A DNA stretch of 64,000 nucleotides, from the IMG/VR virus record IMGVR_UViG_2541047715_000004; one strand, written 5' to 3'. The position numbers and the translations under genes were made by a program. Positions within the stretch are counted from its first letter, which is position 1, and each line of letters begins with the position of its first letter. The notes beneath the pieces were generated by a model. That model did not search any database. It worked only from the letters and a program-made list of their open reading frames with translations, and was not told the DNA's origin. Below are positions 2-34,841 of the stretch, one piece after another. The stretch comes from a virus. Its lineage: Duplodnaviria > Heunggongvirae > Uroviricota > Caudoviricetes.

Positions 2-649
2 AGCACCACAACAAAAGACCTGATGACGCTGAAATGGGATGCGCTAAATATTCTGGTAAATGCCGTCATTAATGGCAGTCTTGGAGTTGGTACGACGAAT
101 GCGTTAGGTGGTAGCTCTATTGTTCTTGGTGATAATGACACCGGATTCAAACAGAATGGTGATGGTATTCTGGATGTTTACGCTAATAGTCAGCGAGTAT
201 TCCGCTTTCAGAATGGAGTTGCTATTGCTTTTAAAAACATTCAGGCTGGTGATAGTAAAAAGTTCTCGCTATCCAGCTCCAACACCTCCACAAAGAATGC
301 AACGTTTAATTTATGGGGTGCTTCAACCCGTCCAGTAGTTGCAGAGTTAGGCGATGAGGCAGGATGGCATTTCTATAGCCAGCGAAATACAGATAACTCG
401 GTAATATTTTCTGTTAACGGTCAGATACAGCCCAACAACTGGGGGAATTTTGATTCACGCTATGTAAAAGATGTTCGCCTGGGTACGCGAGTTGTTCAAT
501 TGATGGCGCGTGGTGGTCGTTATGAAAAAGCCGGACACGCAATTACCGGATTAAGAATCATTGGTGAAGTAGATGGCGATGATGAAGCCATCTTCAGGCC
601 AATACAAAAATACATCAATGGCACATGGTATAACGTCGCACAGGTGTAA
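2..649 (+). CDS. tail fiber protein, C-terminal part (gene starts upstream of window)
   Basis: Reading frame open to window start; Gly/Ser/Asn/Thr-rich sequence; immediately followed by a Tfa-type chaperone gene. Confidence 0.55.
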   Translation, partial: STTTKDLMTLKWDALNILVNAVINGSLGVGTTNALGGSSIVLGDNDTGFKQNGDGILDVYANSQRVFRFQNGVAIAFKNIQAGDSKKFSLSSSNTSTKNATFNLWGASTRPVVAELGDEAGWHFYSQRNTDNSVIFSVNGQIQPNNWGNFDSRYVKDVRLGTRVVQLMARGGRYEKAGHAITGLRIIGEVDGDDEAIFRPIQKYINGTWYNVAQV

Positions 650-1180
650 ATGATGCAGCATTTAAAAAATATTAAGTCTGGAAATCCTAAAACGAAAGAA
701 CAATATCAGCTAACAAAGAATTTTGATGTTATCTGGTTATGGTCCGAAGACGGAAAAAACTGGTATGAGGAAGTGAAGAACTTTCAGCCAGACACAATAA
801 AGATTGTTTACGATGCAAATAATATTATTGTCGCCATCACCAAAGATGCCTCCACGCTTAACCCTGAAGGTTATAGCGTCGTTGAGGTTCCAGATATTAC
901 AGCCAACCGCCGCGCTGATGATTCCGGTAAGTGGATGTTTAGGGACGGAGCTGTGGTTAAACGGATTTATACGGCAGACGAGCAACAACAACAGGCCGAA
1001 TCACAAAAGGCCGCGTTGCTTTCTGAAGCTGAAAGCGTTATTCAGCCACTGGAACGCGCTGTCAGGCTGAATATGGCGACGGATGAGGAGCGTACACGAC
1101 TGGAGTCATGGGAACGCTACAGCGTTCTGGTCAACCGTGTGGATACAGCAAAGCCCGAATGGCCACAAAAGCCTGAATAA
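650..1180 (+). CDS. tfa: tail fiber assembly protein (Tfa-like chaperone)
   Basis: 176 aa; start abuts stop of fiber gene; N-terminal region typical of Tfa/gpU/gpG family chaperones. Confidence 0.65.
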
Positions 1181-1342
1181 AAATTAAGGCCCGCTATCGG
1201 GCCTTGTCTCATTCATCATATTCAGCAATTGACCAAAAGGGTTGAGGAGCTTGAAACGAAGTTAAATTCACCTAAAGAATAAACAACTTCAATCGGGGCT
1301 GGAGCTAAACCAGCCCCTGCTTAAAAGTATAAGGATATATTT

Positions 1343-1597
1343 ATGAGCTATGGTGCACAGGTTTGGTCGCCATCAAGACAGGAGATGGTCAATGCGTTGG
1401 CCCCTGTTTATTACCTCGATTATTTTACTCCCTCTGGTTCAGGAAGTAGAACATATGAGGTTGAGGCGGGATTGGGAATCGACTATTACATAATGGACGT
1501 AACCAATGGAAAGTACACAAGTCTTACGGTTTCTGGAAATACCATTTCGTGGTCTGGAGCTAGTGGTAATTTAAACATATTGGTTTTTCAAAAATAA
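1343..1597 (+). CDS. hypothetical protein, paralog of 59078..59359
   Basis: 84 aa; shares ...FxPxxxDxFTxSGSxxTY...ISWSG... pattern with ORF 59078..59359. Confidence 0.45.
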   Translation: MSYGAQVWSPSRQEMVNALAPVYYLDYFTPSGSGSRTYEVEAGLGIDYYIMDVTNGKYTSLTVSGNTISWSGASGNLNILVFQK

Positions 1598-1690
1598 TGT
1601 ACGGAAGCAAGATATATCGATCTGACGGGAAGGTCTGGATGTCTCCTTCTTTGTCTCCTATCGTTTTTTCAGAGAAAGCAGGTTGTTTCT

Positions 1691-2206
1691 TTGTCCGGCG
1701 GAACAGAGTTTAACACCAAAATATCTCCAGATCGTTCACCGATTATTTTTGTTGCCTATTCGAAAGCTGTTTCATTAATAGCCAACAGAATAGTGCGTAA
1801 CAACCAGGTGATTTACAGTTTCGGAGGTCAGGGTAGCGACTCTAGTGCCACGATATACGTATTTTCGAAAGGTATAGCCAAAAAAGAAACTTGGGGCATG
1901 AGTTTTTTCAATGCACAAGGGGAGGAAATCTATAATACGGCAAATATCCCACTTTCATTTACCTTTCTTAATAATACGGAGTGGAACAGCTCTGGAGGGC
2001 ATGTTTTTGATTACCCTCCAGCGATAATCCCAACATATGCGAATGTGTTCGCTGTTCCAGTACCGGGCGGAGCCATGACAATGGTTTATGGATATGCGGC
2101 ATATGGAAATACTGTTAGCTCGATATTCGTAAACCAACTTAATGGCGGCCATAGTTTTAGCGTAAATGGCAGAGTACCGGTAATAAATAGAAATCTGTAT
2201 AACTGA
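1691..2206 (+). CDS. hypothetical protein, paralog of 59362..59976; 5-prime end ambiguous
   Basis: ORF begins at TTG; an ATG at 1597 in another frame encodes the paralog-like N-terminus (SDGKVWMSP...CFFV) and stops after about 38 codons. Confidence 0.4.
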   Translation: MSGGTEFNTKISPDRSPIIFVAYSKAVSLIANRIVRNNQVIYSFGGQGSDSSATIYVFSKGIAKKETWGMSFFNAQGEEIYNTANIPLSFTFLNNTEWNSSGGHVFDYPPAIIPTYANVFAVPVPGGAMTMVYGYAAYGNTVSSIFVNQLNGGHSFSVNGRVPVINRNLYN

Positions 2207-2213
2207 TGAGTAA

Positions 2214-2447
2214 ATGATGAAAAGATTATTTCTAACAATAGCTGTTGTTCTCTCTCTTACTGGCTGCCAGAAATTGCCGACACCTATATGTTATGGTGAA
2301 GCTATCATTGGTGGACAGGAGACAGTCATACCCATATATGCTGTTAAAAAAGTGAACGACTATACCTTATACAAAGCGGGTAGCATCTATAACTGGCGAT
2401 GGGTTGGAGTAGGTGCTTTCTCATCAATCGGTTGCAATGCTGAATGA
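2214..2447 (+). CDS. small lipoprotein (candidate superinfection-exclusion / receptor-blocking protein)
   Basis: 77 aa; signal peptide with lipobox LTGC; three Cys; lies between fiber genes and lysis genes. Confidence 0.55.
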   Translation: MMKRLFLTIAVVLSLTGCQKLPTPICYGEAIIGGQETVIPIYAVKKVNDYTLYKAGSIYNWRWVGVGAFSSIGCNAE

Positions 2448-2516
2448 TAGGTAAGTACACACCTACAACAAAAGGGTGAAATGTGATATAAATCCGCCAT
2501 CCCGATTTGACTTTTC

Positions 2517-2852
2517 ATGGAGGAAAACATGTCGAACGAGATGGCGGGCGTTACAACAGAGCAAGTTGAGCGTATTGCCGCGATCGTTGCTCGGGAGGTT
2601 GTTGGCAAATTAGGTAAAGAACTACGTGAAGAAATTGGCCAGGAGGTCAATGATCAGCTGAAAACCTACTTTGGTGATATGACCCCGGCGCAACATAGTA
2701 TTCAACACTCCAATCTGGACAAACTCCTTAACCGGTTAGATTCCATCTCAAGTGGGTTCTTTGGCGGCATTGTTTCTAAAATAACGTCGTTCATTATTAC
2801 CGCACTGCTTTTGGGGTTAGCCGCGTATGGCGTAAAAAGTGGACTGCAATAA
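2517..2852 (+). CDS. membrane protein with C-terminal TM helix (possible holin/antiholin)
   Basis: 111 aa; hydrophobic C-terminus ITSFIITALLLGLAAYGV; first gene of a lysis-like cluster. Confidence 0.3.
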   Translation: MEENMSNEMAGVTTEQVERIAAIVAREVVGKLGKELREEIGQEVNDQLKTYFGDMTPAQHSIQHSNLDKLLNRLDSISSGFFGGIVSKITSFIITALLLGLAAYGVKSGLQ

Positions 2853-2865
2853 CAGGAGATCAAGG

Positions 2866-3558
2866 ATGAAGACTCCGAGAGGCATTCGTAATAATAACCC
2901 CGGTAATCTTGATAAAGGATCACCGTGGCAAGGTCTGGTTGCGAATCCAGACGAACCGCGCTTTTGCACGTTTAAAGACCCTGTTTGGGGGATTCGTGCG
3001 CTGGCGGTGACTCTAATTACCTACCACGACAAACGTCGCGCAAAAGACGGCTCAAGTATCGATACCATTCGTGAAGTTATTGAACGTTGGGCACCGCCGA
3101 ATGAAAACAATACTGACGCCTACATTAATGAGGTGTCTAAAGCCGTTGGTGTAACCGCAGACATGATCATCGATCTGCATGATTACGACATCCTTCGACC
3201 TTTGGTTGAGGCAATCATTCGCCACGAGAATGGCCGAGGCCCGCTAAAAACGCTGAACACCTGGTATGCGGCAGAAGTTATTGAGGAAGGTCTGCGTCGA
3301 GCTGGCGTTGTTAAGCCGGTGAAAACCGTGAAGGCTGTTCCTGTAACTAAAGAAACCGCAGGCGCAACTGTTACAGCAGGTATTGGTCTGGCGCAGCTGG
3401 CCGATGTTATGCCGCAGGTTTCCGCTGCTATGGATAAAGCACAAGGTCATATCTCTAGCGGGGATACAGTACGCATCATCTTCGGTATTGCCACTATTGT
3501 TGTGGCAGGATTCATTGCCTGGTCGCAGGTAAGAAAACACCAGAAAGGGATGGTCTAA
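2866..3558 (+). CDS. putative lysis protein / endolysin-like with C-terminal membrane anchor
   Basis: Start moved to ATG 2866 after AGGAG; conserved GIRNNNPGNL motif; C-terminal TM helix; followed directly by spanin genes. Confidence 0.35.
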   Translation: MKTPRGIRNNNPGNLDKGSPWQGLVANPDEPRFCTFKDPVWGIRALAVTLITYHDKRRAKDGSSIDTIREVIERWAPPNENNTDAYINEVSKAVGVTADMIIDLHDYDILRPLVEAIIRHENGRGPLKTLNTWYAAEVIEEGLRRAGVVKPVKTVKAVPVTKETAGATVTAGIGLAQLADVMPQVSAAMDKAQGHISSGDTVRIIFGIATIVVAGFIAWSQVRKHQKGMV

Positions 3559-3559
3559 T

Positions 3560-3811
3560 ATGCTAGGCAGCCTGATGACAAAGCTAAAAGTTGCTTTGAT
3601 TACGCTGGCTGCCGTTCTTTTCGTTCTTGTCGGCGCTTACACGATGGGCGGGAATGCGGCGCGACGAGCAATGGAAGAGAAGGCAAAACAGGAAGACAGA
3701 AAACGACTTCAAAGCACAGTGGATGTCAAAAATGAAACGGTTAATGAAGTGCGGCAAAAAGATGCCTCTGGTGTTCATCGCGAGCTGTTTGATAAATGGG
3801 TGCGTGATTAA
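3560..3811 (+). CDS. i-spanin (Rz-like)
   Basis: 83 aa; N-terminal TM helix then charged coiled-coil-like region; partner lipoprotein ORF overlaps its 3-prime end in another frame. Confidence 0.55.
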   Translation: MLGSLMTKLKVALITLAAVLFVLVGAYTMGGNAARRAMEEKAKQEDRKRLQSTVDVKNETVNEVRQKDASGVHRELFDKWVRD

Positions 3812-5480: not shown

Positions 5481-6149
5481 ATGACCAAGATCTTTGTGGT
5501 TGGCGGCACAAAGGGCGGGCCTGGCAAATCCACCGTTGCCCAGCAAATTGCCGTTTGCCTGAAAGTCAAAAAGAAGAAGAAGGTTTATATCACTGATATA
5601 GATATTCAGCGCACGACAACAAGCTGGTGTGAAGACCGTCGACAGAACGAAGACCTTGAGCTGATTCCTTTTGCATACGTTCAGGATGACATCATTAAGC
5701 ACCTAAAATCGCTTCAGGGTAGAGCTGAGTTTGTAGTGGTAGATGCTGGTGGCTTCGACTCCGAAATTCAGCGACAAGCGATGCTGATGGCTGACGTTAT
5801 CATTATCCCGCTGCGTCCTAAGCGTCGTGATTTGAAATCTTTACGTGACATCGATCCTATTATCGACAATGTTCGCAATGTAAACGATAAAGTGAAGGTC
5901 CGCGCGGTCATGAACCAGTGCCCGGCTTTGCCATCACAAGTGTCTCGCATTCTGGCGGCTAAAGAGATTGTTGAGACGTTTGGCATCGAGTCTGCGCCAG
6001 TCAATCTATATAACCGCAACGTCTATGATGATGCGGAAGAGTCTGGTCGTTCTATCTTTGAAATGACCGGTAGCGAGCGCGACAAAAAGGCGGAAGCCGA
6101 GTTTGAAGAATTTGTAGATTATCTGTTGAGTCTGGAGGAAGAAGAATAA
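5481..6149 (+). CDS. parA: ParA-family partition ATPase
   Basis: Deviant Walker A GGTKGGPGKST near N-terminus; 222 aa; followed by small RHH-like partner. Confidence 0.85.
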   Translation: MTKIFVVGGTKGGPGKSTVAQQIAVCLKVKKKKKVYITDIDIQRTTTSWCEDRRQNEDLELIPFAYVQDDIIKHLKSLQGRAEFVVVDAGGFDSEIQRQAMLMADVIIIPLRPKRRDLKSLRDIDPIIDNVRNVNDKVKVRAVMNQCPALPSQVSRILAAKEIVETFGIESAPVNLYNRNVYDDAEESGRSIFEMTGSERDKKAEAEFEEFVDYLLSLEEEE

Positions 6150-6508
6150 TGTCCATGAAAATGGGTGACCTAGCAAAGCGCAAAGAGCCTGATGCACCGG
6201 CTAAGAACACAACTCCTTTGCGCCAACCAGTCAGACCACAGGGACGCCCGACTCGTGGCAAAGAGAAAATTAAAAGCCGCACAATGTCACTGGAGGACGA
6301 ATACTTCGAACTGCTGGAGATGATGAAGTTCATCCCTCGCTTCGAGAAGTTCACTCGTTCTGACGTGATTCGAGCAGCCATTTTCCATCTGGCAGAGAAG
6401 TCACCGCAGGAAATCGAGGACATCGTGAAATTGAATGAGGCGATCACCGCTGCCGATGTCACGATGCGTACCGATGAAATTAAACGCGAGTTAATGAAGA
6501 AAGGTTGA
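6149..6508 (+). CDS. small partition DNA-binding protein (ParG/RHH-like)
   Basis: 119 aa; basic N-terminus then RHH-like segment; start overlaps parA stop. Confidence 0.5.
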   Translation: MSMKMGDLAKRKEPDAPAKNTTPLRQPVRPQGRPTRGKEKIKSRTMSLEDEYFELLEMMKFIPRFEKFTRSDVIRAAIFHLAEKSPQEIEDIVKLNEAITAADVTMRTDEIKRELMKKG

Positions 6509-6517
6509 TATAAATCT

Positions 6518-6547
6518 CTAAGGCTGGTCTGCATTGGACAGCCTTAG
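6518..6547. terminator. bidirectional hairpin between convergent genes
   Basis: CTAAGGCTG...CAGCCTTAG inverted repeat between 6508 and 6569. Confidence 0.5.
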
Positions 6548-6568
6548 AAATATTTCGTTCTATGAAAG

Positions 6569-7642
6569 CTATTCGTAGTTAAGCTCACCGAACAGACTGA
6601 ACATCAAGTCACCATCCAAAATTTCAAAGGGCAACTCGACATACTCATCCTTATGTCTCGGAATTGCGTTGCCGTCGTTAGGGGCATTCTTGGTATAACC
6701 TTTTACATGTTTACCGTTTTCTTTTGTATACGGCAGCACGACAATTCGACCGTGATTTTTTGAAATGATAGTTCCTTCTTTCCAGAGCGTATTGCCTCTT
6801 GAGGTGGTTTCGCTTTCGCTAGCAACTTTAACACTCCAACCTACCTGATTTTTGTCCTCAAACCAGAAAACAAAGTTGCCAACAACCAGTACCTTTTGCC
6901 CATTCCTGAGAGCTTCATCCAGCATTCTTTTTACGCTGGCGAGTTGCAGTAACCGGTTAGCACGCGGCAGAAGCATTGAGCGAATAGTCGCTTTTGTTTT
7001 TCCCCAATGTGCAGCACCTGATAAACCAAAACCTCTGGCTATGCGTTCTTGGTAGCAGATCTTCGCTGTCTTAGCTTTGTTGTTATATGAACATTCCCAA
7101 GTGTTAGGAGCAACGAGTTGAAGTGAAACTTGGAATTTGGGAAGAAAAACAAAATGTAAGTAAGGCATCTCGCTTAGCACGTCAAAAAGGGGTTGACGCA
7201 AAGTTTCGTAATCTGGGTTAATTATTAACTCATTTAATGTCACTCGCGGATCGTTGGCGTGTGCCTTAATTGCTTCGTTGAGCATTATATGCTCTTCATC
7301 CATGAGACGTGATTTGGCTTTGAGTGCTTTGTCAACTTTCAAACGCAATGACTTCTTTTGAAACATAGATAGAGGAAGTTTTTCAATGTCAAAGCTCACG
7401 TTTTTATTCAGCTCTAATGCCGCTTTTCTTGCTTCAGGATAGTTATCGTAGTCGTCATCAAAAGCGTGGTTTGGCATACCACGATCAACATATCGCCGAT
7501 ACCAAGCAAGGGTTCCATCATTACGGAGTTTCAGACAGAACATCGACCATTTATTCCGTTCATATTTAGGCTGAGGCCAAAAAGCCAGTTCGGGAAGGCC
7601 ATATCCTGGAAGTCTATTCATGCGCATGGTGACAATATCCAC
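6569..7642 (-). CDS. hypothetical protein (lone minus-strand gene)
   Basis: 357 aa ORF with no motif I recognise; opposite orientation to flanking operons. Confidence 0.5.
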   Translation of the reverse strand: MDIVTMRMNRLPGYGLPELAFWPQPKYERNKWSMFCLKLRNDGTLAWYRRYVDRGMPNHAFDDDYDNYPEARKAALELNKNVSFDIEKLPLSMFQKKSLRLKVDKALKAKSRLMDEEHIMLNEAIKAHANDPRVTLNELIINPDYETLRQPLFDVLSEMPYLHFVFLPKFQVSLQLVAPNTWECSYNNKAKTAKICYQERIARGFGLSGAAHWGKTKATIRSMLLPRANRLLQLASVKRMLDEALRNGQKVLVVGNFVFWFEDKNQVGWSVKVASESETTSRGNTLWKEGTIISKNHGRIVVLPYTKENGKHVKGYTKNAPNDGNAIPRHKDEYVELPFEILDGDLMFSLFGELNYE

Positions 7643-7744
7643 GAGGCTAAAACACTGATTCTAACATGATCTCCCTTGATAAATCTGTCAATGACATAGC
7701 ATCTGGGGTTGGAGTCAAATTATGTTGTTCTTGGTATCCATTAG

Positions 7745-7803
7745 GAGCCTGTTTCTGTATATAAATAATAAGTAACTTATTAAATATATACGGAAGCAGG
7801 TCT
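7745..7803. repeat. long GC-stem / AT-loop hairpin element, copy 1
   Basis: GCCTGTTTCTGTATATA...TATATACGGAAGCAGGTC inverted repeat with TATAAATA-containing loop; second copy at 55221..55281. Confidence 0.6.
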
Positions 7804-7907
7804 TTTAAAAGACACCACCAGAACAACTCCCTTCCGTTTTCACTTCCAAAAACTGCCACCAGTCGCTATCATCCGCTCATTGTGATAAGTAAGTAACTAC
7901 CTACCGG

Positions 7908-8657
7908 GTGAGCCACATGAGCCAAATCTTTTTCGATACCATCGACAACGACCAGTACGACTTCATGACAGAGTGGAATACCGCTGTTATGGACAAGTGG
8001 GTCGCTGAAAACATTGGTTTGTCGCGCTGTAAAGATGAGGCTGAACTCTTCGAGACGAAGTGGTTTGATTACCGCGACATGCATCCTCTTATGGCCACCT
8101 GTCTGTTTACGGAGGCATACAAACGTCAGTACTCAAATATCATGCTGACGCACGGTCGCGAACACTTTGAAACAGCTCCGTTCACCACCGGGTTAAAACG
8201 CCTGCCTTATCAGGAGTTGTCGACTGCCAATAAAACGTCTCTATGGAAAGCACGCCAGTTTGCTGACCGCTATTGCTGCTCATACGACTACTTTATCTCC
8301 ACCGTTCTTTCCGCAGCTGCACGACGGCTGTGGGACAAGCTGCCGCGCCCACAGCATTTATGGCAGCCAGAACTGATTGAGATATTTGAAGAGAAATTAG
8401 CCAGACGCGCAACAACCCGTCTGGATGACTCTCTGGTTAGCTTTAAGTATATGGGAGACATGCAGTTCAACCCGATTCAGGAAAGCTATTTTGAGTGGAT
8501 TCTGGAGCGTTTGCGCACCATCCCTCGCAGTAAGCGCATACGCGCAATTTTCTCCGCTATCTGGCTAATGGAAATCGTTCCAGAGCGCCTTATTTCCGCC
8601 CACTTTCCAGAAGAACTGGAAGAAGCACGGCGGTTTATTGATCCCCTATCTAATTAA
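7908..8657 (+). CDS. hypothetical protein
   Basis: 249 aa ORF upstream of helicase gene. Confidence 0.5.
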   Translation: MSHMSQIFFDTIDNDQYDFMTEWNTAVMDKWVAENIGLSRCKDEAELFETKWFDYRDMHPLMATCLFTEAYKRQYSNIMLTHGREHFETAPFTTGLKRLPYQELSTANKTSLWKARQFADRYCCSYDYFISTVLSAAARRLWDKLPRPQHLWQPELIEIFEEKLARRATTRLDDSLVSFKYMGDMQFNPIQESYFEWILERLRTIPRSKRIRAIFSAIWLMEIVPERLISAHFPEELEEARRFIDPLSN

Positions 8658-29111: not shown

Positions 29112-29171
29112 AGTTTTCCTTTGAAGATAGTTGGACAGTTTCTGCAAAAGGCGGCTAATGCCGCCTTGAAA

Positions 29172-29650: not shown

Positions 29651-30082
29651 GTGAACACTGATATTTTTTCTAAAATCATGGCCGATCTGGAGTTCGACCG
29701 CGACAACCTTGAGGAAGTATGGCGTAAACAGCCACGGCTTTTAATGGAGTATGGGTCAAAACTAGCGCAGGCAGATCGAGATGTCGCAGAGGCAAAACTT
29801 AACCTTGAAGCTGTTGAAGCAAAGCTATACGACACAGAGCGTAAGAACTTGAGTATGAACGGCATTAAGTTCAACGAGTCTGTACTGGACGCTAAGGTTA
29901 AAACAAACCCACAGTATCTGTCTAAACGGCAGAAGTTGGATGAAGCACGGCACATCGCAGACATATACAAACATGCTGTCGCCGCCTTTTCGCATCGCCG
30001 AGACATGATCGTTCAGGCGTCAAAGATGGCCATCGTTGAATTAGAGCGATTAGGCTCTGAACGCTTTATTACTCCCCGTTGA
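29651..30082 (+). CDS. hypothetical coiled-coil protein
   Basis: 143 aa, charged, helical-looking. Confidence 0.4.
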   Translation: MNTDIFSKIMADLEFDRDNLEEVWRKQPRLLMEYGSKLAQADRDVAEAKLNLEAVEAKLYDTERKNLSMNGIKFNESVLDAKVKTNPQYLSKRQKLDEARHIADIYKHAVAAFSHRRDMIVQASKMAIVELERLGSERFITPR

Positions 30083-30199
30083 TTTTTGATAGATAATAAG
30101 TAAGTACTGATCTATCATTTAACAGCTCGAAAGAGCCACGAATGAACGAAAGCCCAACGCGCATAGCGCCATCGGCCAAATCACAACAAGGAGAAACAC

Positions 30200-31228
30200 A
30201 TGTCTAAGACATTACTTGATTTGCTTAACAAAACTCGTGAAGACATTGCCGCCAAACGTGGCAACAACGTTGATCTGACTCGCTTAAAAGACGGCGTCAA
30301 CTATATCCGCATCTTCCCGAATAAAGACGACCCAAACGGTAAGTTCTTCCAGACTTTCGGTATGCACTACGTTAAGTATCAGAACGAGGAAGGTAAAGAA
30401 GCAACCAACGCTTATATTTGTGAGCAACATACTCACGGTCGCGCTTGTCAGCTATGCGAAATGGTGATGGAAGGTCGCGCTCGTCACAAGGGTAACAAAG
30501 CAATGGAAGAACGCATCGGTCAAATGCGTGCCACTCCTCGCTACCTGGTCAACGGCATTCTTTCTGCTCGTGAGGATTTCGCAGATGCTGAGAAATGCCA
30601 GTTAATCGAGCTGCCGTCTACTGTATTCGATGATATCTGCAAAGCAATCACCGAAGACATCGCTGATGATATCGGCAATCCACTGAGCAAAGAGGAAGGC
30701 TACGCATTCCTGATTAAACGTACTGGCTCTGGTCGCGATACCAAATATGACGTCTCGCCTAAGCGTAAAGTCTACAAAGGCGATATCGAAGATAAATTCT
30801 GGAACACCCAGCATGATCTGATCGCATACGCAAATCAGGCTGATGAAACTCGTCTTCTGTCGACAGTTCGCACTATGGGTCGTCTGATTGGCATCGCTGC
30901 ACCAACTGCCGCAGCATCTGCACCAGCAATTTCCTCAACCGCGAAAACATCGGCTGCGGCACTACCTGGATTTGGCTCTGTCACTGGTCATACAGAAGGA
31001 GCGACGGCTGTAGCAACCGCGCACACACCGGCTTCTGAACCAACCAGTCTGGTTGATGAAGAAATCCTCCGTGCCGTTGAAACTGAATTTAAACCAGAGG
31101 CAAGTTCCGCTGCCGTTGCCGTATCAGTCAAAGAGTCTGAAGCAGTCGCAGCGACATCTGTAGCAACCGCATCTGCGACGGAAGATGAAGGTCTGGATGA
31201 CCTACTGAGAGAGCTGGACTCTCTGTAA
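30200..31228 (+). CDS. single-stranded DNA-binding protein, T4 gp32-like
   Basis: IRIFPNKDD...CEQHTHGRACQLC zinc-site-like H/C cluster; Ala/Ser/Thr-rich linker and acidic C-terminal tail EDEGLDDLLRELDSL. Confidence 0.65.
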   Translation: MSKTLLDLLNKTREDIAAKRGNNVDLTRLKDGVNYIRIFPNKDDPNGKFFQTFGMHYVKYQNEEGKEATNAYICEQHTHGRACQLCEMVMEGRARHKGNKAMEERIGQMRATPRYLVNGILSAREDFADAEKCQLIELPSTVFDDICKAITEDIADDIGNPLSKEEGYAFLIKRTGSGRDTKYDVSPKRKVYKGDIEDKFWNTQHDLIAYANQADETRLLSTVRTMGRLIGIAAPTAAASAPAISSTAKTSAAALPGFGSVTGHTEGATAVATAHTPASEPTSLVDEEILRAVETEFKPEASSAAVAVSVKESEAVAATSVATASATEDEGLDDLLRELDSL

Positions 31229-31244
31229 TCCCATTACGTGACCA

Positions 31245-31275
31245 GTAAGGCGTCTACGGACGCCTTACTTTTTGG
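31245..31275 (+). terminator. rho-independent terminator after ssb
   Basis: AAGGCGTC-TACG-GACGCCTT hairpin followed by ACTTTTT. Confidence 0.65.
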
Positions 31276-31288
31276 AAGGAATGTACCG

Positions 31289-32233
31289 GTGAATTATCTC
31301 TTCGTAGATGGCAATAGCCTGGGTTATTACCACCAACAATCTGACAAATTGCACAACGGCGAAATGGAAGTACAGGCTGCTTTCGGCTTTGTTAAGAACG
31401 TCCGTCGTTATGCCTCCATCCTCCATGCCCGACCTATGATTCTTTGGGATGGATTTAGTGACAAGCGTCGCGACTTTTACCCGGACTACAAAGCAAATCG
31501 CGACGACGATCCTGATATGAAAAAGATGAAGGAAGGCTTTGCTATCCAGAAGCCATACATCCTCAAAATGATGACCGCGCTTGGAGTTACCCAACTCATT
31601 GCAAAAGATGCAGAAGCGGATGATCTGGCCGGGCTGCTGGTATCCCGCATGGCACCGCAGCCAACCGTTGAACACATCTATCTGTTAACAGGCGATAGCG
31701 ACTGGCTTCAGTTAGTTCGTGAAAACGTAAGCTGGGTAAGCCTGCGTGAAGACGCCAAAAACAAGCAGGTTAATTTTGAGCAATTTGCGGAGCTGACAGG
31801 ATTCGCTACTCCTCGCGCATTTTTGGAAGCAAAAGCATTACAAGGCGATAAATCGGACAACATTAGCGGTGTTGGTGGCATTGGTGCTGGCGGTGCGAAA
31901 GAGCTGCTGCATGAATGGGGAAGTGTCGCAACGATGGTACGCGGCATCAACGACGGCTCAATCGTGGTTGACAAAGGACGCCATAAGACCGCCTTCAACA
32001 AACTAGCGAAGAATGCCTTCAACGAGAAAACAGGCTGTCGAATGCTCGAAGCGTTCAAGAGAAACATCACGCTAATGAACCTGATTGAGACGAAGTTTCC
32101 GCCTACCGAAATCGAAACAATCAAAGGCAATCGTGACGTGAAAGCATTCGAGCAACTGTGCTACGAGCTGAATTTCCGTTCGTTCCTTGAAGACCTTGAA
32201 GTGTTTGTTCTTCCATTCGAAAGGTATTGCTAA
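31289..32233 (+). CDS. 5-prime-3-prime exonuclease / flap endonuclease (FEN family)
   Basis: YLFVDGNSLGYY N-terminal motif and acidic-residue pattern of Pol I 5-prime nuclease / T4 RNase H family; start placed at GTG 31289 downstream of terminator hairpin (table ORF starts 31238). Confidence 0.75.
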   Translation: MNYLFVDGNSLGYYHQQSDKLHNGEMEVQAAFGFVKNVRRYASILHARPMILWDGFSDKRRDFYPDYKANRDDDPDMKKMKEGFAIQKPYILKMMTALGVTQLIAKDAEADDLAGLLVSRMAPQPTVEHIYLLTGDSDWLQLVRENVSWVSLREDAKNKQVNFEQFAELTGFATPRAFLEAKALQGDKSDNISGVGGIGAGGAKELLHEWGSVATMVRGINDGSIVVDKGRHKTAFNKLAKNAFNEKTGCRMLEAFKRNITLMNLIETKFPPTEIETIKGNRDVKAFEQLCYELNFRSFLEDLEVFVLPFERYC

Positions 32234-32499
32234 TGCTTAAATCGATTATTAATGGCGCTACAACCACCCCCACCCAACTGGCAAAAGAGATTGTCTTTTA
32301 TCACGGTGAGTACGCTGTCATCGCACTGCCGTCAATTCTAGGCGCTGCCGGAATGAAAGCGACAGATCGCGAGTTTGGATTAGTCAGCGAGCAGGTCGTA
32401 AAAATCCTCGCTCGTGTATCCAGACTCCTTAATCACGATGCGATTGTATTCGACGAATCCGCCGCTTTAAAACGAATCAACGAAACAAAAGGAGCCTGA
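32227..32499 (+). CDS. hypothetical protein
   Basis: 90 aa ORF immediately upstream of recombinase. Confidence 0.4.
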   Translation: MLMLKSIINGATTTPTQLAKEIVFYHGEYAVIALPSILGAAGMKATDREFGLVSEQVVKILARVSRLLNHDAIVFDESAALKRINETKGA

Positions 32500-32501
32500 T
32501 C

Positions 32502-34841
32502 ATGGCAAAAGGAAAATCCGCACTGGCACTTGCTCTGAAAAAGAAAATCGGTAGCAACGACGAAATTCAGAAAGTAACTCATTGGATTGACACAGGCTTT
32601 CCTCCGTTAAACAAAGCTATTTCCGGTCGTTACGATGGCGGTTTCCCATGTGGTCGTATCGTAGAAGTATTCGGGCCACCAAGCGCGGGGAAATGTGTTA
32701 CCGCAGACACCATGCTGCTGACGGAGCGTGGAATGGTAACAGTGAAAGAGTTGTTTGAGATTGAAGGGTACAAAGCGACATGCACTACTCGCGATGTAGA
32801 GCATAACGTTGGACTCATCAATGAAAATGGCGTGATAGAGAAGACCTCACACCTGACATGGAACAACCGTCGCAAATTCAAGCGTATTAAGCTGGCATCA
32901 GGCGGTTATATCGAGGCTACGTTCCGTCACCCAATCCGTGTGGTTGACGACTTAGGTAATGTCGTCTGGCGACATGCTGAAAAAATCAGTGTAGGCGACA
33001 CGATTCCTTCAATGGTTGGCACACATCAATTCGGCGATCAGCACCTGGATGCCAATATCGCAAAACTGATGGGCTATTTAATTGCTGACGGATACGTGGC
33101 CTCTGAAAATTCAGTGAATTTTTCTAACACAGATCCTTTCATCAAGGATGAGTACTACCGCCTCATTTCGCTGGTATCAGACAAGATGCCAGTTACGAGA
33201 AAACATAACGGCTCGGAAGACCATGTGCTGTTTAGCAAAGAGGTGCGTTCGCTGCTTTTTAAAGAATATGGTCTGGAGTATGAGAAAGCTGCTGGCAAGC
33301 AGGTTCCGTTGAGTGTGCGTCGCGCCAATAGCGAGGCTCAAATTGCATTCCTTCGCGGCTACTTTGAGCTGGAATGCCACGTCAATGATGGTCGCTGCAT
33401 TGAGGTTGTGAGCGCGAGTGGGCTGCTGCTACAGCAAATTCGCCTCATGCTCCTGAATCTGGGGATTACGTCAACTATCTCTGAAAAACACGTCGCGGGT
33501 TATGAAAATACATATTACCGGCTGTCATTCAGTGGCTCTAATTACGACCTTTTTCTGTCAACGATTGGTTTCGAATCTCCGGCACGTTTATCAGTGGCAA
33601 CCAAACGGGACATTGGTTTTGACCGCACTTACTCAGGCTATGTTCCGCACATCAGCGGCTTAGTGAAATCACTCTACGAGTCGCTCACCAAGACCACCCG
33701 TGAAGACTACGCTCTGGTAGACCACGTTATTGGCCGCGGCGATCGTGTCGGAATAGACAAACTGCGAGAAATCTATGTCTCCTTCATTGGCAGAAAGAAT
33801 CGTTTTAACGAGCATCTGTTTGCACAACTGGCAGCGGTAATTGGCTCTAACTTGTTCTACGACGAAGTCGTGGCTATTGAGGAAGGTGAAGCACCAACGT
33901 TCGACGTAGCGATGCCGGAAACACACTCTTTCTGGTCTAACGGGATTATCAGCCACAACACATTCCTTGCAACAGCAGCGATGATCTCCGCTCAAAAACA
34001 AGATGGTCTGGCGGTATTCCTCGATCATGAAAACAGTTTTGACGTTGGCCTGGCTGTAGCCAATGGCCTGAACGCAGATGAGGATGACGGTCAGTGGGTA
34101 TACAAGCAGCCAGATACCTTCGAAGACTCTGTAGAGTTGATCGGCACAATACTTAAATTGGTTCGTGATGAAGAGCTTATCCCCGAATCAGCACCTATCT
34201 GTATCGTGGCTGACTCTCTTGCGTCTATGGTTCCGAACTCCAAAGCCGAGAAGTTCGAAAAGATGGCTGAAGGCACAGCCAAAGACAAAGATCAGCTAAA
34301 CATGAACGACAATACGGCACTGGCTCGTGCGACGAGTGCGAACTTCCCTACTCTGGCTTTGTGGGCACGCAAATACAACGCCTGCATCATCTTCTTGAAT
34401 CAGGTTCGCACAAAAATCGGTGTAATGTTTGGCGACCCTACTACGTCGCCAGGTGGAGATTCACCGAAGTTCTACGCTTCTGTACGTATCCGTCTTGGTG
34501 CATCGGTGATGAAGGATGGTAAAGAGAAGATCGGCCAGGACGTAGGCGCAGAATGCATCAAAAACAAAGTTGCACCACCGTATGGCAAATGCACCTGGAA
34601 ATTCTACTTCGATCCTACTCGTGGCCTCGACGTTATCGAATCGCTCGTCGAGTACATGCTGGAAGAAGGATACCTGCCAAAGAACGCCAGCGGGCGAGTT
34701 GAAATTGGTGACAAGAAATACACCAAATCGCAGATCGTCGAGATGTATCGGGAGAAGCCACTGGCTGAAATCATTGCGGCTTTGCAGGCAATCGACGACC
34801 GAAGAGCAAAAGACAACCCCACCGAGCCAGTAGAAGAGTAA
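32502..34841 (+). CDS. RecA/UvsX-like recombinase containing an intein
   Basis: Exteins (64 + 293 aa) rejoin to GPPSAGK-TFLATAAM Walker A; RecA-like C-terminal region. Confidence 0.8.
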   Translation: MAKGKSALALALKKKIGSNDEIQKVTHWIDTGFPPLNKAISGRYDGGFPCGRIVEVFGPPSAGKCVTADTMLLTERGMVTVKELFEIEGYKATCTTRDVEHNVGLINENGVIEKTSHLTWNNRRKFKRIKLASGGYIEATFRHPIRVVDDLGNVVWRHAEKISVGDTIPSMVGTHQFGDQHLDANIAKLMGYLIADGYVASENSVNFSNTDPFIKDEYYRLISLVSDKMPVTRKHNGSEDHVLFSKEVRSLLFKEYGLEYEKAAGKQVPLSVRRANSEAQIAFLRGYFELECHVNDGRCIEVVSASGLLLQQIRLMLLNLGITSTISEKHVAGYENTYYRLSFSGSNYDLFLSTIGFESPARLSVATKRDIGFDRTYSGYVPHISGLVKSLYESLTKTTREDYALVDHVIGRGDRVGIDKLREIYVSFIGRKNRFNEHLFAQLAAVIGSNLFYDEVVAIEEGEAPTFDVAMPETHSFWSNGIISHNTFLATAAMISAQKQDGLAVFLDHENSFDVGLAVANGLNADEDDGQWVYKQPDTFEDSVELIGTILKLVRDEELIPESAPICIVADSLASMVPNSKAEKFEKMAEGTAKDKDQLNMNDNTALARATSANFPTLALWARKYNACIIFLNQVRTKIGVMFGDPTTSPGGDSPKFYASVRIRLGASVMKDGKEKIGQDVGAECIKNKVAPPYGKCTWKFYFDPTRGLDVIESLVEYMLEEGYLPKNASGRVEIGDKKYTKSQIVEMYREKPLAEIIAALQAIDDRRAKDNPTEPVEE
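32694..33959 (+). mobile_element. intein with LAGLIDADG homing-endonuclease domain
   Basis: Starts with Cys (CVTADTML), TFRH block B, LMGYLIADGYV and FLRGYFELECHV motifs, ends ...GIISHN followed by Thr. Confidence 0.75.

Follow-up and report, generated by a model that had tools for sequence, protein, structure and literature searches.

A recently mobile LAGLIDADG intein in the Walker A motif of a RecA-like recombinase of SSU5-like phage-plasmids

When the gene for a RecA-family recombinase carries a long in-frame insert inside the motif that binds ATP, does the insert control the recombinase, has it inactivated the gene, or does it simply live there? The question is raised by an open reading frame (ORF) of 779 amino acids (aa) in a stretch of 64,000 nucleotides (nt) of viral DNA (Caudoviricetes; IMG/VR record IMGVR_UViG_2541047715_000004), referred to here as the window, which is an SSU5-like phage-plasmid of Escherichia coli. 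An earlier note, made from the sequence alone, had described the insert as a LAGLIDADG intein in the P-loop of a RecA/UvsX-like recombinase. The analysis reported here bears this out and indicates that the insert is, very probably, a class-1 intein with a homing endonuclease which is spreading by homing and lives primarily as a selfish parasite at a conserved site that is hard to mutate.

The ORF list and its translation place the insert of 422 aa (1266 nt) exactly, to the base, where the earlier note had put it. The precursor reads ...RIVEVFGPPSAGK directly before Cys65, with which the intein starts, and TFLATAAM... follows Asn486, with which it ends (Table 1). The insertion point is therefore between the Lys and the Thr of the Walker A motif, GPPSAGK↓T (the arrow marks the junction), and Thr487 is at once the Thr of that motif and the +1 splicing nucleophile. 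The remaining RecA core (Walker B, L1 and L2 loops) and the C-terminal domain lie in the C-extein. Conceptual excision gives joined exteins of 357 aa that read ...FGPPSAGKTFLATAAM..., in which GPPSAGKT is continuous. The same gene without an intein, an ORF of 357-359 aa, is found in CMS-2020a, SP15_P2, SSU5, Yersinia pestis pMT1 and plasmids of Enterobacter and Klebsiella, where it reads GPPSAGKTFLATAAM or FGPPSAGKTFLATAAM; the P-loop predicted from excision thus matches the natural intein-less alleles exactly. The calculated masses are 86.6 kDa for the precursor, 39.0 kDa for the spliced protein and 47.5 kDa for the free intein, in agreement with the 86 and 39 kDa expected beforehand for the first two. 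A search of the window for a second intein found none.

All of the intein blocks and both LAGLIDADG motifs quoted in the earlier note are present. The residues of a class-1 intein are complete: Cys1, T76xxH79, blocks F/G ending in FWSNGIISHN (intein aa 413-422), His421-Asn422 and, immediately after, Thr+1; they are joined by the two acids of the LAGLIDADG motifs, Asp132 and Glu227. The intein exceeded the gathering scores of Pfam Intein_splicing (PF14890; 46.6 bits, 35.8 required) and LAGLIDADG_3 (PF14528; 65.8 bits, 22.5 required). With the full 779-aa precursor as the query, the profiles for the N-terminal region (TIGR01445; 35.4, cut-off 24.5) and the C-terminal region (TIGR01443; 17.8, cut-off 15.6) of inteins were also matched, and the best NCBIfam matches of the intein were the RFC and aIF2 P-loop inteins. 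A phmmer search against the PDB aligned intein aa 117-283 with the endonuclease domains of the TliVMA intein and PI-PkoII, Glu227 falling on the Asp of the second TliVMA motif, and the alignment of allelic inteins showed that ELE[CS] is kept in those relatives that retain the endonuclease.

The predicted fold agrees. An AlphaFold2 model of the intein, made from an input of 11 sequences, had a pLDDT of 81 and a pTM of 0.85. Its best Foldseek match was the TliVMA intein (7qss; E 8e-20, TM 0.68), and further matches to complete intein-endonucleases were PI-PfuI (1dq3), PI-PkoII (2cw7) and PI-SceI. The two sub-domains of the model were matched by mini-inteins, including those of Pho RadA and Mtu RecA, and by I-DmoI. 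By sequence and predicted fold, therefore, the insert is a complete class-1 intein with a two-motif LAGLIDADG homing endonuclease; the profile scores are far too high for chance matches.

The host protein proved to be a recombinase of the RecA family, which bears out the earlier proposal. The joined exteins scored 145.8 bits with Pfam RecA (PF00154; E 2e-42, cut-off 27), against 125.5 bits, split in two pieces, for the precursor, and PHROG 97, 'UvsX-like recombinase', was matched with E 1e-91. The best matches among solved structures were bacterial RecA proteins (E 1e-31 to 6e-35), while phage UvsX-type structures matched much more weakly (9gbg, 2e-9; T4 UvsX 3io5, 1e-5); the Pfam, PHROG and PDB matches reported included no Sak4 family. 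In the alignment with E. coli RecA, 'vevfgppsagktflataam' lies on 'veiygpessgkttltlqvi', with GPPSAGKT over GPESSGKT and the insertion at the equivalent of GK↓T. Features conserved with E. coli RecA (3cmu) are GPxSxGKT, the Walker B motif (VDS/ADS) and the L2 loop (NQxRxKIGVMFGxPxTxxGG). By these comparisons the recombinase is closer to bacterial RecA than to T4 UvsX. As the intein-containing precursor, used as the query, fell below the cut-off of the bacterial RecA equivalog TIGR02012 (132.6 vs 325.3 bits), the protein is on this evidence best regarded as a phage-type RecA-like protein and not as a demonstrated ortholog of cellular RecA.

The host gene is far more widespread than the intein. 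It was found in 831 plasmids of PLSDB, and is occupied by the intein in about 30% and free of it in about 70%. The insert is thus not a domain conserved in all homologues, a possibility the earlier note had kept in view. Among the close intein-less alleles, the extein nucleotide identity is 98.2% for CMS-2020a and 99.8% for plasmid SP15_P2; the existence of such near-identical alleles within the intein-less majority means that the intein is dispensable. Intein DNA was present in 248 PLSDB plasmids, every match having at least 90% identity, and the hosts were Escherichia (123), Klebsiella (71) and Enterobacter (41), with Citrobacter, Shigella, Cronobacter, Kluyvera and Salmonella in addition. 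It was also present in 120 of 5426 complete E. coli genomes (2.2%), exclusively on plasmids; chromosomal recA was considered as a target and discarded, there being no chromosomal match in the 5426 genomes.

To follow the movement of the intein, six intein-bearing and six intein-less alleles were compared after being split explicitly at the protein junction. They fall into three extein lineages, an E. coli type, an SSU5/Enterobacter/pMT1 type and a Klebsiella type, each of which has members with and without the intein. Each lineage is 96-99% identical to its own intein-less members, and exteins are only 81-90% identical across lineages, while the six inteins are 96.8-100% identical to each other. 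For the same allele pairs the synonymous divergence (dS) was 0.09 in the intein and 1.2-1.9 in the exteins. The ratio of non-synonymous to synonymous divergence (dN/dS) of the intein was 0.15 and none of the six copies contained a stop codon. A foreign origin was also sought in the base composition, but the GC fractions of the intein (0.482) and the extein (0.491) gave no such signal.

The bases beside the intein follow the intein rather than the background. GGGAAA↓ACATTCCT is common to all six intein-bearing alleles, whatever the background, and five of the six have the junction GCGGGGAAA↓ACA. As its Thr+1 codon every intein-bearing allele uses ACA, and every intein-less allele examined uses ACG or ACC, the matched intein-less backgrounds having GGTAAA↓ACC or GGGAAA↓ACG (Table 1). 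PLSDB was then queried with 80-nt 'precise excision' sequences of the E. coli and Klebsiella types. The E. coli-type haplotype had a 100% match in none of 90 contiguous intein-less alleles (best 98.8%) and the Klebsiella-type haplotype in none of 238 contiguous alleles (best 96.3%, 3 mismatches); the flank haplotype GGGAAA↓ACA, like the Thr codon ACA itself, was not found among the 328 contiguous intein-less alleles. In SJC33 the intein sits on a CMS-2020a-like left flank, from which it follows that co-conversion can reach as little as 3 nt to the right and less than 10 nt to the left. The synonymous bases adjoining the intein thus travel with it and are unseen without it, as expected if double-strand breaks are repaired with short co-conversion tracts. 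Such a junction pattern would be hard to obtain by generalised recombination alone. Evidently the endonuclease tolerates several wobble-position variants of its target.

These results show that the intein has recently jumped between diverged recA copies in plasmids of E. coli, Klebsiella and Enterobacter. The description of the locus as a mobile element nested in a mobile element is upheld, both by the nature of the window and by these population-genetic signs of recent horizontal spread.

A likely course of events can be set out, in which the steps at the protein level rest on the intact catalytic residues and established intein chemistry, and those at the DNA level on the population patterns and LAGLIDADG biology. 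The 86.6-kDa precursor would be made first and would be unable to bind ATP before splicing; with its Walker A motif split by 422 residues it cannot be an active ATPase. Cys1 would undergo an N-S acyl shift, Thr+1 would attack the resulting thioester (trans-esterification) and Asn422 would cyclise, aided by His421 and by Thr76 and His79 of block B. The 47.5-kDa intein would thereby be released and the exteins joined as the 39-kDa recombinase with an intact P-loop. The free intein would then act as a site-specific endonuclease, cutting the P-loop-coding sequence of an intein-less recA when related phage-plasmids share a cell. Repair of the break from the intein-bearing copy would transfer the intein and a few flanking bases, that is, homing with short co-conversion tracts.

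The same activity could be given a more pointed role. The endonuclease might be a weapon in the competition of SSU5-like phage-plasmids that are co-resident or co-infecting, cutting the recombinase gene of intein-less rivals, and/or splicing might be conditionally gated, which would switch the element's own recombination with its lifestyle. The seg/mob endonucleases, which mediate marker exclusion in T-even phages, offer an analogy for the former. Either would make the intein more than a passive parasite, although this is thought rather unlikely. Since cultivable phages that bear the intein (Cyrano/pLF82 and PhiR41_1) exist alongside near-identical intein-less E. coli phage-plasmids, the cost or benefit of the intein is measurable in a model host.

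Several points weigh against homing by an active, splicing intein. The second LAGLIDADG motif (FLRGYFELE227C) terminates in Glu-Cys and not Asp-Gly; the pLDDT of the AlphaFold2 model is below 50 in the final 7 residues, which makes the active-site geometry uncheckable there; and both splicing and DNA cleavage are deduced from sequence. The comparison on matched backgrounds consists of 12 sequenced alleles and the two 80-mer haplotype searches. Phage-plasmids of the SSU5-like group are mosaic, and ordinary homologous recombination adds to the discordance between intein and extein. Finally, a distant allelic intein on the metagenomic phage contig L094 has an in-frame TGA in place of the Trp codon of FWSNG in block G.

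The first and the fifth of these points could be combined in a reading where splicing is retained but the endonuclease is dead, the intein being carried along only as a passenger when mosaic phage-plasmids undergo ordinary homologous recombination. Mosaicism is visible in the extein itself, as the differences between the window and Cyrano cluster at the 3' end of the gene and the extein of SJC33 is a hybrid. Decay of the endonuclease does occur in this intein family, the first LAGLIDADG motif having been lost in the distant RecA allelic inteins P0007, P0012 and P0013, and ELEC is a non-canonical second motif. Both acidic residues are retained here, however, and the dN/dS of 0.15 is not what a dead endonuclease would suggest. 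The transferred tracts stop about 3-9 nt from the intein on each side, where passive spread would be expected to leave longer, variable flanks, and at least three extein lineages have been entered which are 10-19% divergent, so that homology-driven exchange would have little to work on with flanks so short. Passive spread is, therefore, considered distinctly improbable.

A domesticated conditional switch is a further alternative, in which splicing would be gated by a signal (redox via Cys1 or nearby cysteines, temperature, DNA damage, or lysogeny/lysis) and the recombinase activated when needed. The P-loop RadA intein is a documented case of conditional splicing, which has also been discussed for RecA (PMC5790916, PMC4760082, PMC11377839). 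An insertion in the P-loop necessarily inactivates the precursor, and the intein has four cysteines (positions 1, 30, 228 and 235). Nothing in the sequence points specifically to a sensor, however; about 70% of homologous recA genes do without the intein, among them the 99.8% identical SP15, and the pattern is that of recent invasion and not of long vertical retention. This makes a switch highly improbable. The earlier note had spoken of recombination as 'coupled' to intein activity; in a regulatory sense such coupling can be surmised at most, and the dispensability of the element means that a regulatory role is not indicated.

It might also be asked whether the gene is a pseudogene, the intein no longer splicing and the phage-plasmids relying on the RecA of their host. 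RecA is available from the host, larger plasmids contain remnants of the gene truncated by insertion sequences (IS), and the stop codon in block G of the distant relative on L094 implies that intein-bearing recA genes can decay. Against this, all six copies compared are intact frames of 779-780 aa with every catalytic residue present, and at least 80% of the intein is covered in 240 of the 248 plasmid matches and 115 of the 120 E. coli genome matches. Moreover, among the matches listed, 28 full-length RefSeq matches are annotated as protein products, and the dN/dS of 0.15 indicates purifying selection. A pseudogene is accordingly barely credible, and homing of a functional intein stays the preferred reading.

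The truncated intein matches in E. coli plasmids were considered as natural deletions of the endonuclease, but proved to be remnants bounded by IS elements. Two plasmids of 136 and 165 kb (L092, NZ_CP162200.1, and L093, NZ_CP116971.1) have only the 3' part of the intein and the C-extein, flanked by IS3/IS30 fragments, with a gene for type III restriction-modification next to them. Both are what IS activity has left of an SSU5-like element and not natural mini-inteins.

The wider family was surveyed by a search with the intein alone against 5.8 billion proteins, which gave 13 matches, and by a species-level genome scan. The matches of the former outside the SSU5 group were inteins with 27-45% identity and, where both junctions were present, these sit in RecA at the same site, GPE(S/G)SGK↓C...SHN↓TT. 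The scan added a RecA intein from Anaerolineae (metagenome-assembled genome locus L013; 45% identity). At 22-29% identity there are inteins at GK↓T/S of FtsH, PhoH, RuvB, MutS and a RecD-like helicase, and also in non-P-loop hosts. Given their shared insertion point and 28-45% aa identity, the bacterial RecA P-loop inteins (P0007, P0009, P0012, P0013 and L013) are alleles of one family with one homing site. Their hosts are canonical recA genes with a RecA_C domain, unlike the phage-plasmid gene, and none is more than 45% identical. In its region 6001-8388 the contig L094 (ERZ27257820 k141_7541) carries an allelic P-loop intein (44% identity) within the same PolIII-gp32-exonuclease-recA order. 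Gene callers split this gene into an ORF of N-extein plus intein and a separate 306-aa RecA ORF; its TGA could reflect a pseudogene, a sequencing error or stop-codon read-through.

Among known systems, the position between Lys and Thr of the P-loop is a 'classic' site of intein insertion (PMC5050341), RecA is among the top bacterial intein hosts (PMC4760082) and an archaeal RadA intein is also located in the P-loop (PMC5790916). The RadA inteins of Pyrococcus horikoshii and Thermococcus sibericus resemble the present one in interrupting the Walker A motif (P-loop) of a strand-exchange protein of the RecA superfamily (PMC5790916), in having a class-1 Hint domain (the Pho RadA mini-intein is one of the fold matches) and in leaving a necessarily inactive precursor. 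They are, however, endonuclease-free mini-inteins of archaeal chromosomes with documented temperature-dependent splicing, whereas the present intein has a full LAGLIDADG domain, lies on an enterobacterial phage-plasmid and is polymorphic in the population; the sequence similarity is marginal (E 0.1). The RecA intein of Mycobacterium tuberculosis (PI-MtuI) likewise has a LAGLIDADG-type endonuclease and RecA function needs its splicing (PMC5050341, PMC11377839). The Mtu-type insertion is about 180 residues further downstream, the phage-plasmid C-extein aligning to positions 71-253 of NF007072, and the two intein sequences are not specifically related. With its different insertion site, the present protein scored only 100.8 bits with NF007072, 'intein-containing recombinase RecA', for which the cut-off is 1024.

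The mycobacteriophage TerL1-a inteins are also phage-borne and share with DnaB-b, MCM-a and RFC-a the site between the invariant Walker A Lys and the nucleophilic Thr (PMC5050341, PMC4760082), but all four are in other host proteins and have no close sequence relation to the phage-plasmid intein. TliVMA, PI-PfuI, PI-PkoII and PI-SceI share its architecture, in which a two-motif LAGLIDADG domain interrupts a Hint domain (Foldseek E 8e-20 to 4e-9, TM at most 0.68); they are only 10-21% identical and are archaeal or yeast inteins of V-ATPase, ribonucleotide reductase or polymerase hosts.

The kind of element is therefore well known, a class-1 LAGLIDADG intein that splits the P-loop of a RecA-superfamily protein at the classic Lys↓Thr position, and no new mechanism is revealed; the finding is clear but ordinary. 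This intein itself is unpublished: no description was found in the literature, and the paper on Cyrano/pLF82 (PMC9928086) is silent on it. RefSeq already names WP_022649903.1, and some other copies, 'intein-containing recombinase RecA'. Most database copies go under 'LAGLIDADG family homing endonuclease', 'hint domain-containing protein', 'hypothetical protein' or 'RecA', and PHROG 9666 bears the label 'unknown function'. An accurate annotation would be that of an intein-containing RecA-like recombinase, and most copies are misnamed. The practical value lies in annotation and in tractability, as this is a common intein that is naturally polymorphic in close relatives growable in E. coli K-12 or LF82. 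Its main interest is twofold, an unusually clean natural polymorphism and E. coli phage-plasmids, both intein-bearing and intein-free, that can be cultivated; this offers a natural system for measuring homing frequency, co-conversion tract length, target tolerance of the endonuclease and the fitness cost of a recombinase intein.

Table 1 Positions in the window of the interrupted gene, its intein and the neighbouring genes, with the junctions of four intein-less alleles
Feature	Position	Strand	Remarks
DNA polymerase III alpha-like protein, 1168 aa	24193-27699	+	start of the local gene order
Upstream recombination/replication module	29651..32499	+	same gene order on distant metagenomic phage contig L094
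143-aa ORF	29651-30082	+	'UvsY recombination mediator' in Cyrano annotation; PHROG matches (phrog_2058) only to families of unknown function
gp32-like single-stranded DNA-binding protein	30200-31228	+	PHROG matches; Cyrano and SSU5 annotation
5'-3' exonuclease	31238-32233	+	PHROG matches; Cyrano and SSU5 annotation
Small ORF	32227-32499	+	directly upstream of interrupted recA
Interrupted recombinase gene, 779 aa	32502..34841	+	RecA family
N-extein, aa 1-64	32502..32693	+	ends ...FGPPSAGK, first part of Walker A; N-terminus identical or near-identical in intein-less alleles
Left junction flank GCGGGGAAA	32685..32693	+	SJC33 has GCAGGGAAA; GGGAAA in 6/6 intein-bearing alleles; probable co-conversion tract
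Intein, precursor aa 65-486	32694..33959	+	Hint splicing domain interrupted by LAGLIDADG homing-endonuclease domain
Block A, CVTADTML, intein aa 1-8	32694..32717	+	Cys1 is the N-terminal nucleophile; C[VL]xxDT conserved in allelic inteins
Block B, TFRH, intein aa 76-79	32919..32930	+	Thr76...His79 (TxxH); aligns with (T)xxH of homologous inteins
Homing-endonuclease region and subsequent helical region, intein aa ~117-385	33042..33848	+	approximate boundaries, from model and PDB alignment
First LAGLIDADG motif, LMGYLIADGYV, intein aa 125-135	33066..33098	+	Asp132 putative catalytic acid; aligns with GYLIADG of TliVMA
Second LAGLIDADG motif, FLRGYFELECHV, intein aa 219-230	33348..33383	+	Glu227 putative catalytic acid
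Blocks F/G, PTFDVAMPETHSFWSNGIISHN	33894..33959	+	penultimate His421, terminal Asn422; best conserved stretch among allelic inteins
C-extein, aa 487-779 plus stop	33960..34841	+	starts with Thr487; Pfam RecA and alignment to E. coli RecA 3cmu
Right junction flank ACATTCCT	33960..33967	+	begins with Thr codon ACA; probable co-conversion tract
Intein-less junction, Klebsiella W14			GCTGGTAAA↓ACC
Intein-less junction, Enterobacter FY-1			GCTGGTAAA↓ACCTTTTTG
Intein-less junction, E. coli CMS-2020a			GCAGGGAAA↓ACG
Intein-less junction, E. coli SP15			GCGGGGAAA↓ACG

Identity to the Escherichia phages PhiR41_1, Cyrano and CMS-2020a is 97.6-98.9%, for the gene as for the remainder of the window, and Salmonella phage SSU5 is a relative. 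Cyrano is pLF82, an SSU5-like phage-plasmid of E. coli LF82 that has about 5.5 copies per cell and makes virions (PMC9928086). The gene order around recA shows that the interrupted gene supplies the recombinase to a recombination/replication module carried by a mobile element; downstream of it come a small membrane protein and an SPFH protein. If the UvsY annotation in Cyrano is right, the locus would be a complete UvsX/UvsY/gp32-style module, with a recombinase at its centre that is RecA-like and not UvsX-like.

The plus-strand replication/recombination block is interrupted by two minus-strand ORFs (28003-28314 and 28548-29147), one of which is a cold-shock (CspA-like) protein and the other a 199-aa ORF of no known function; the pair may be a moron or a regulatory insert. 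On L094, the PolIII alpha homologue (269-3607) also has a C-terminal match to a UDG-family Pfam entry, an unusual replicase fusion in this group of phages.

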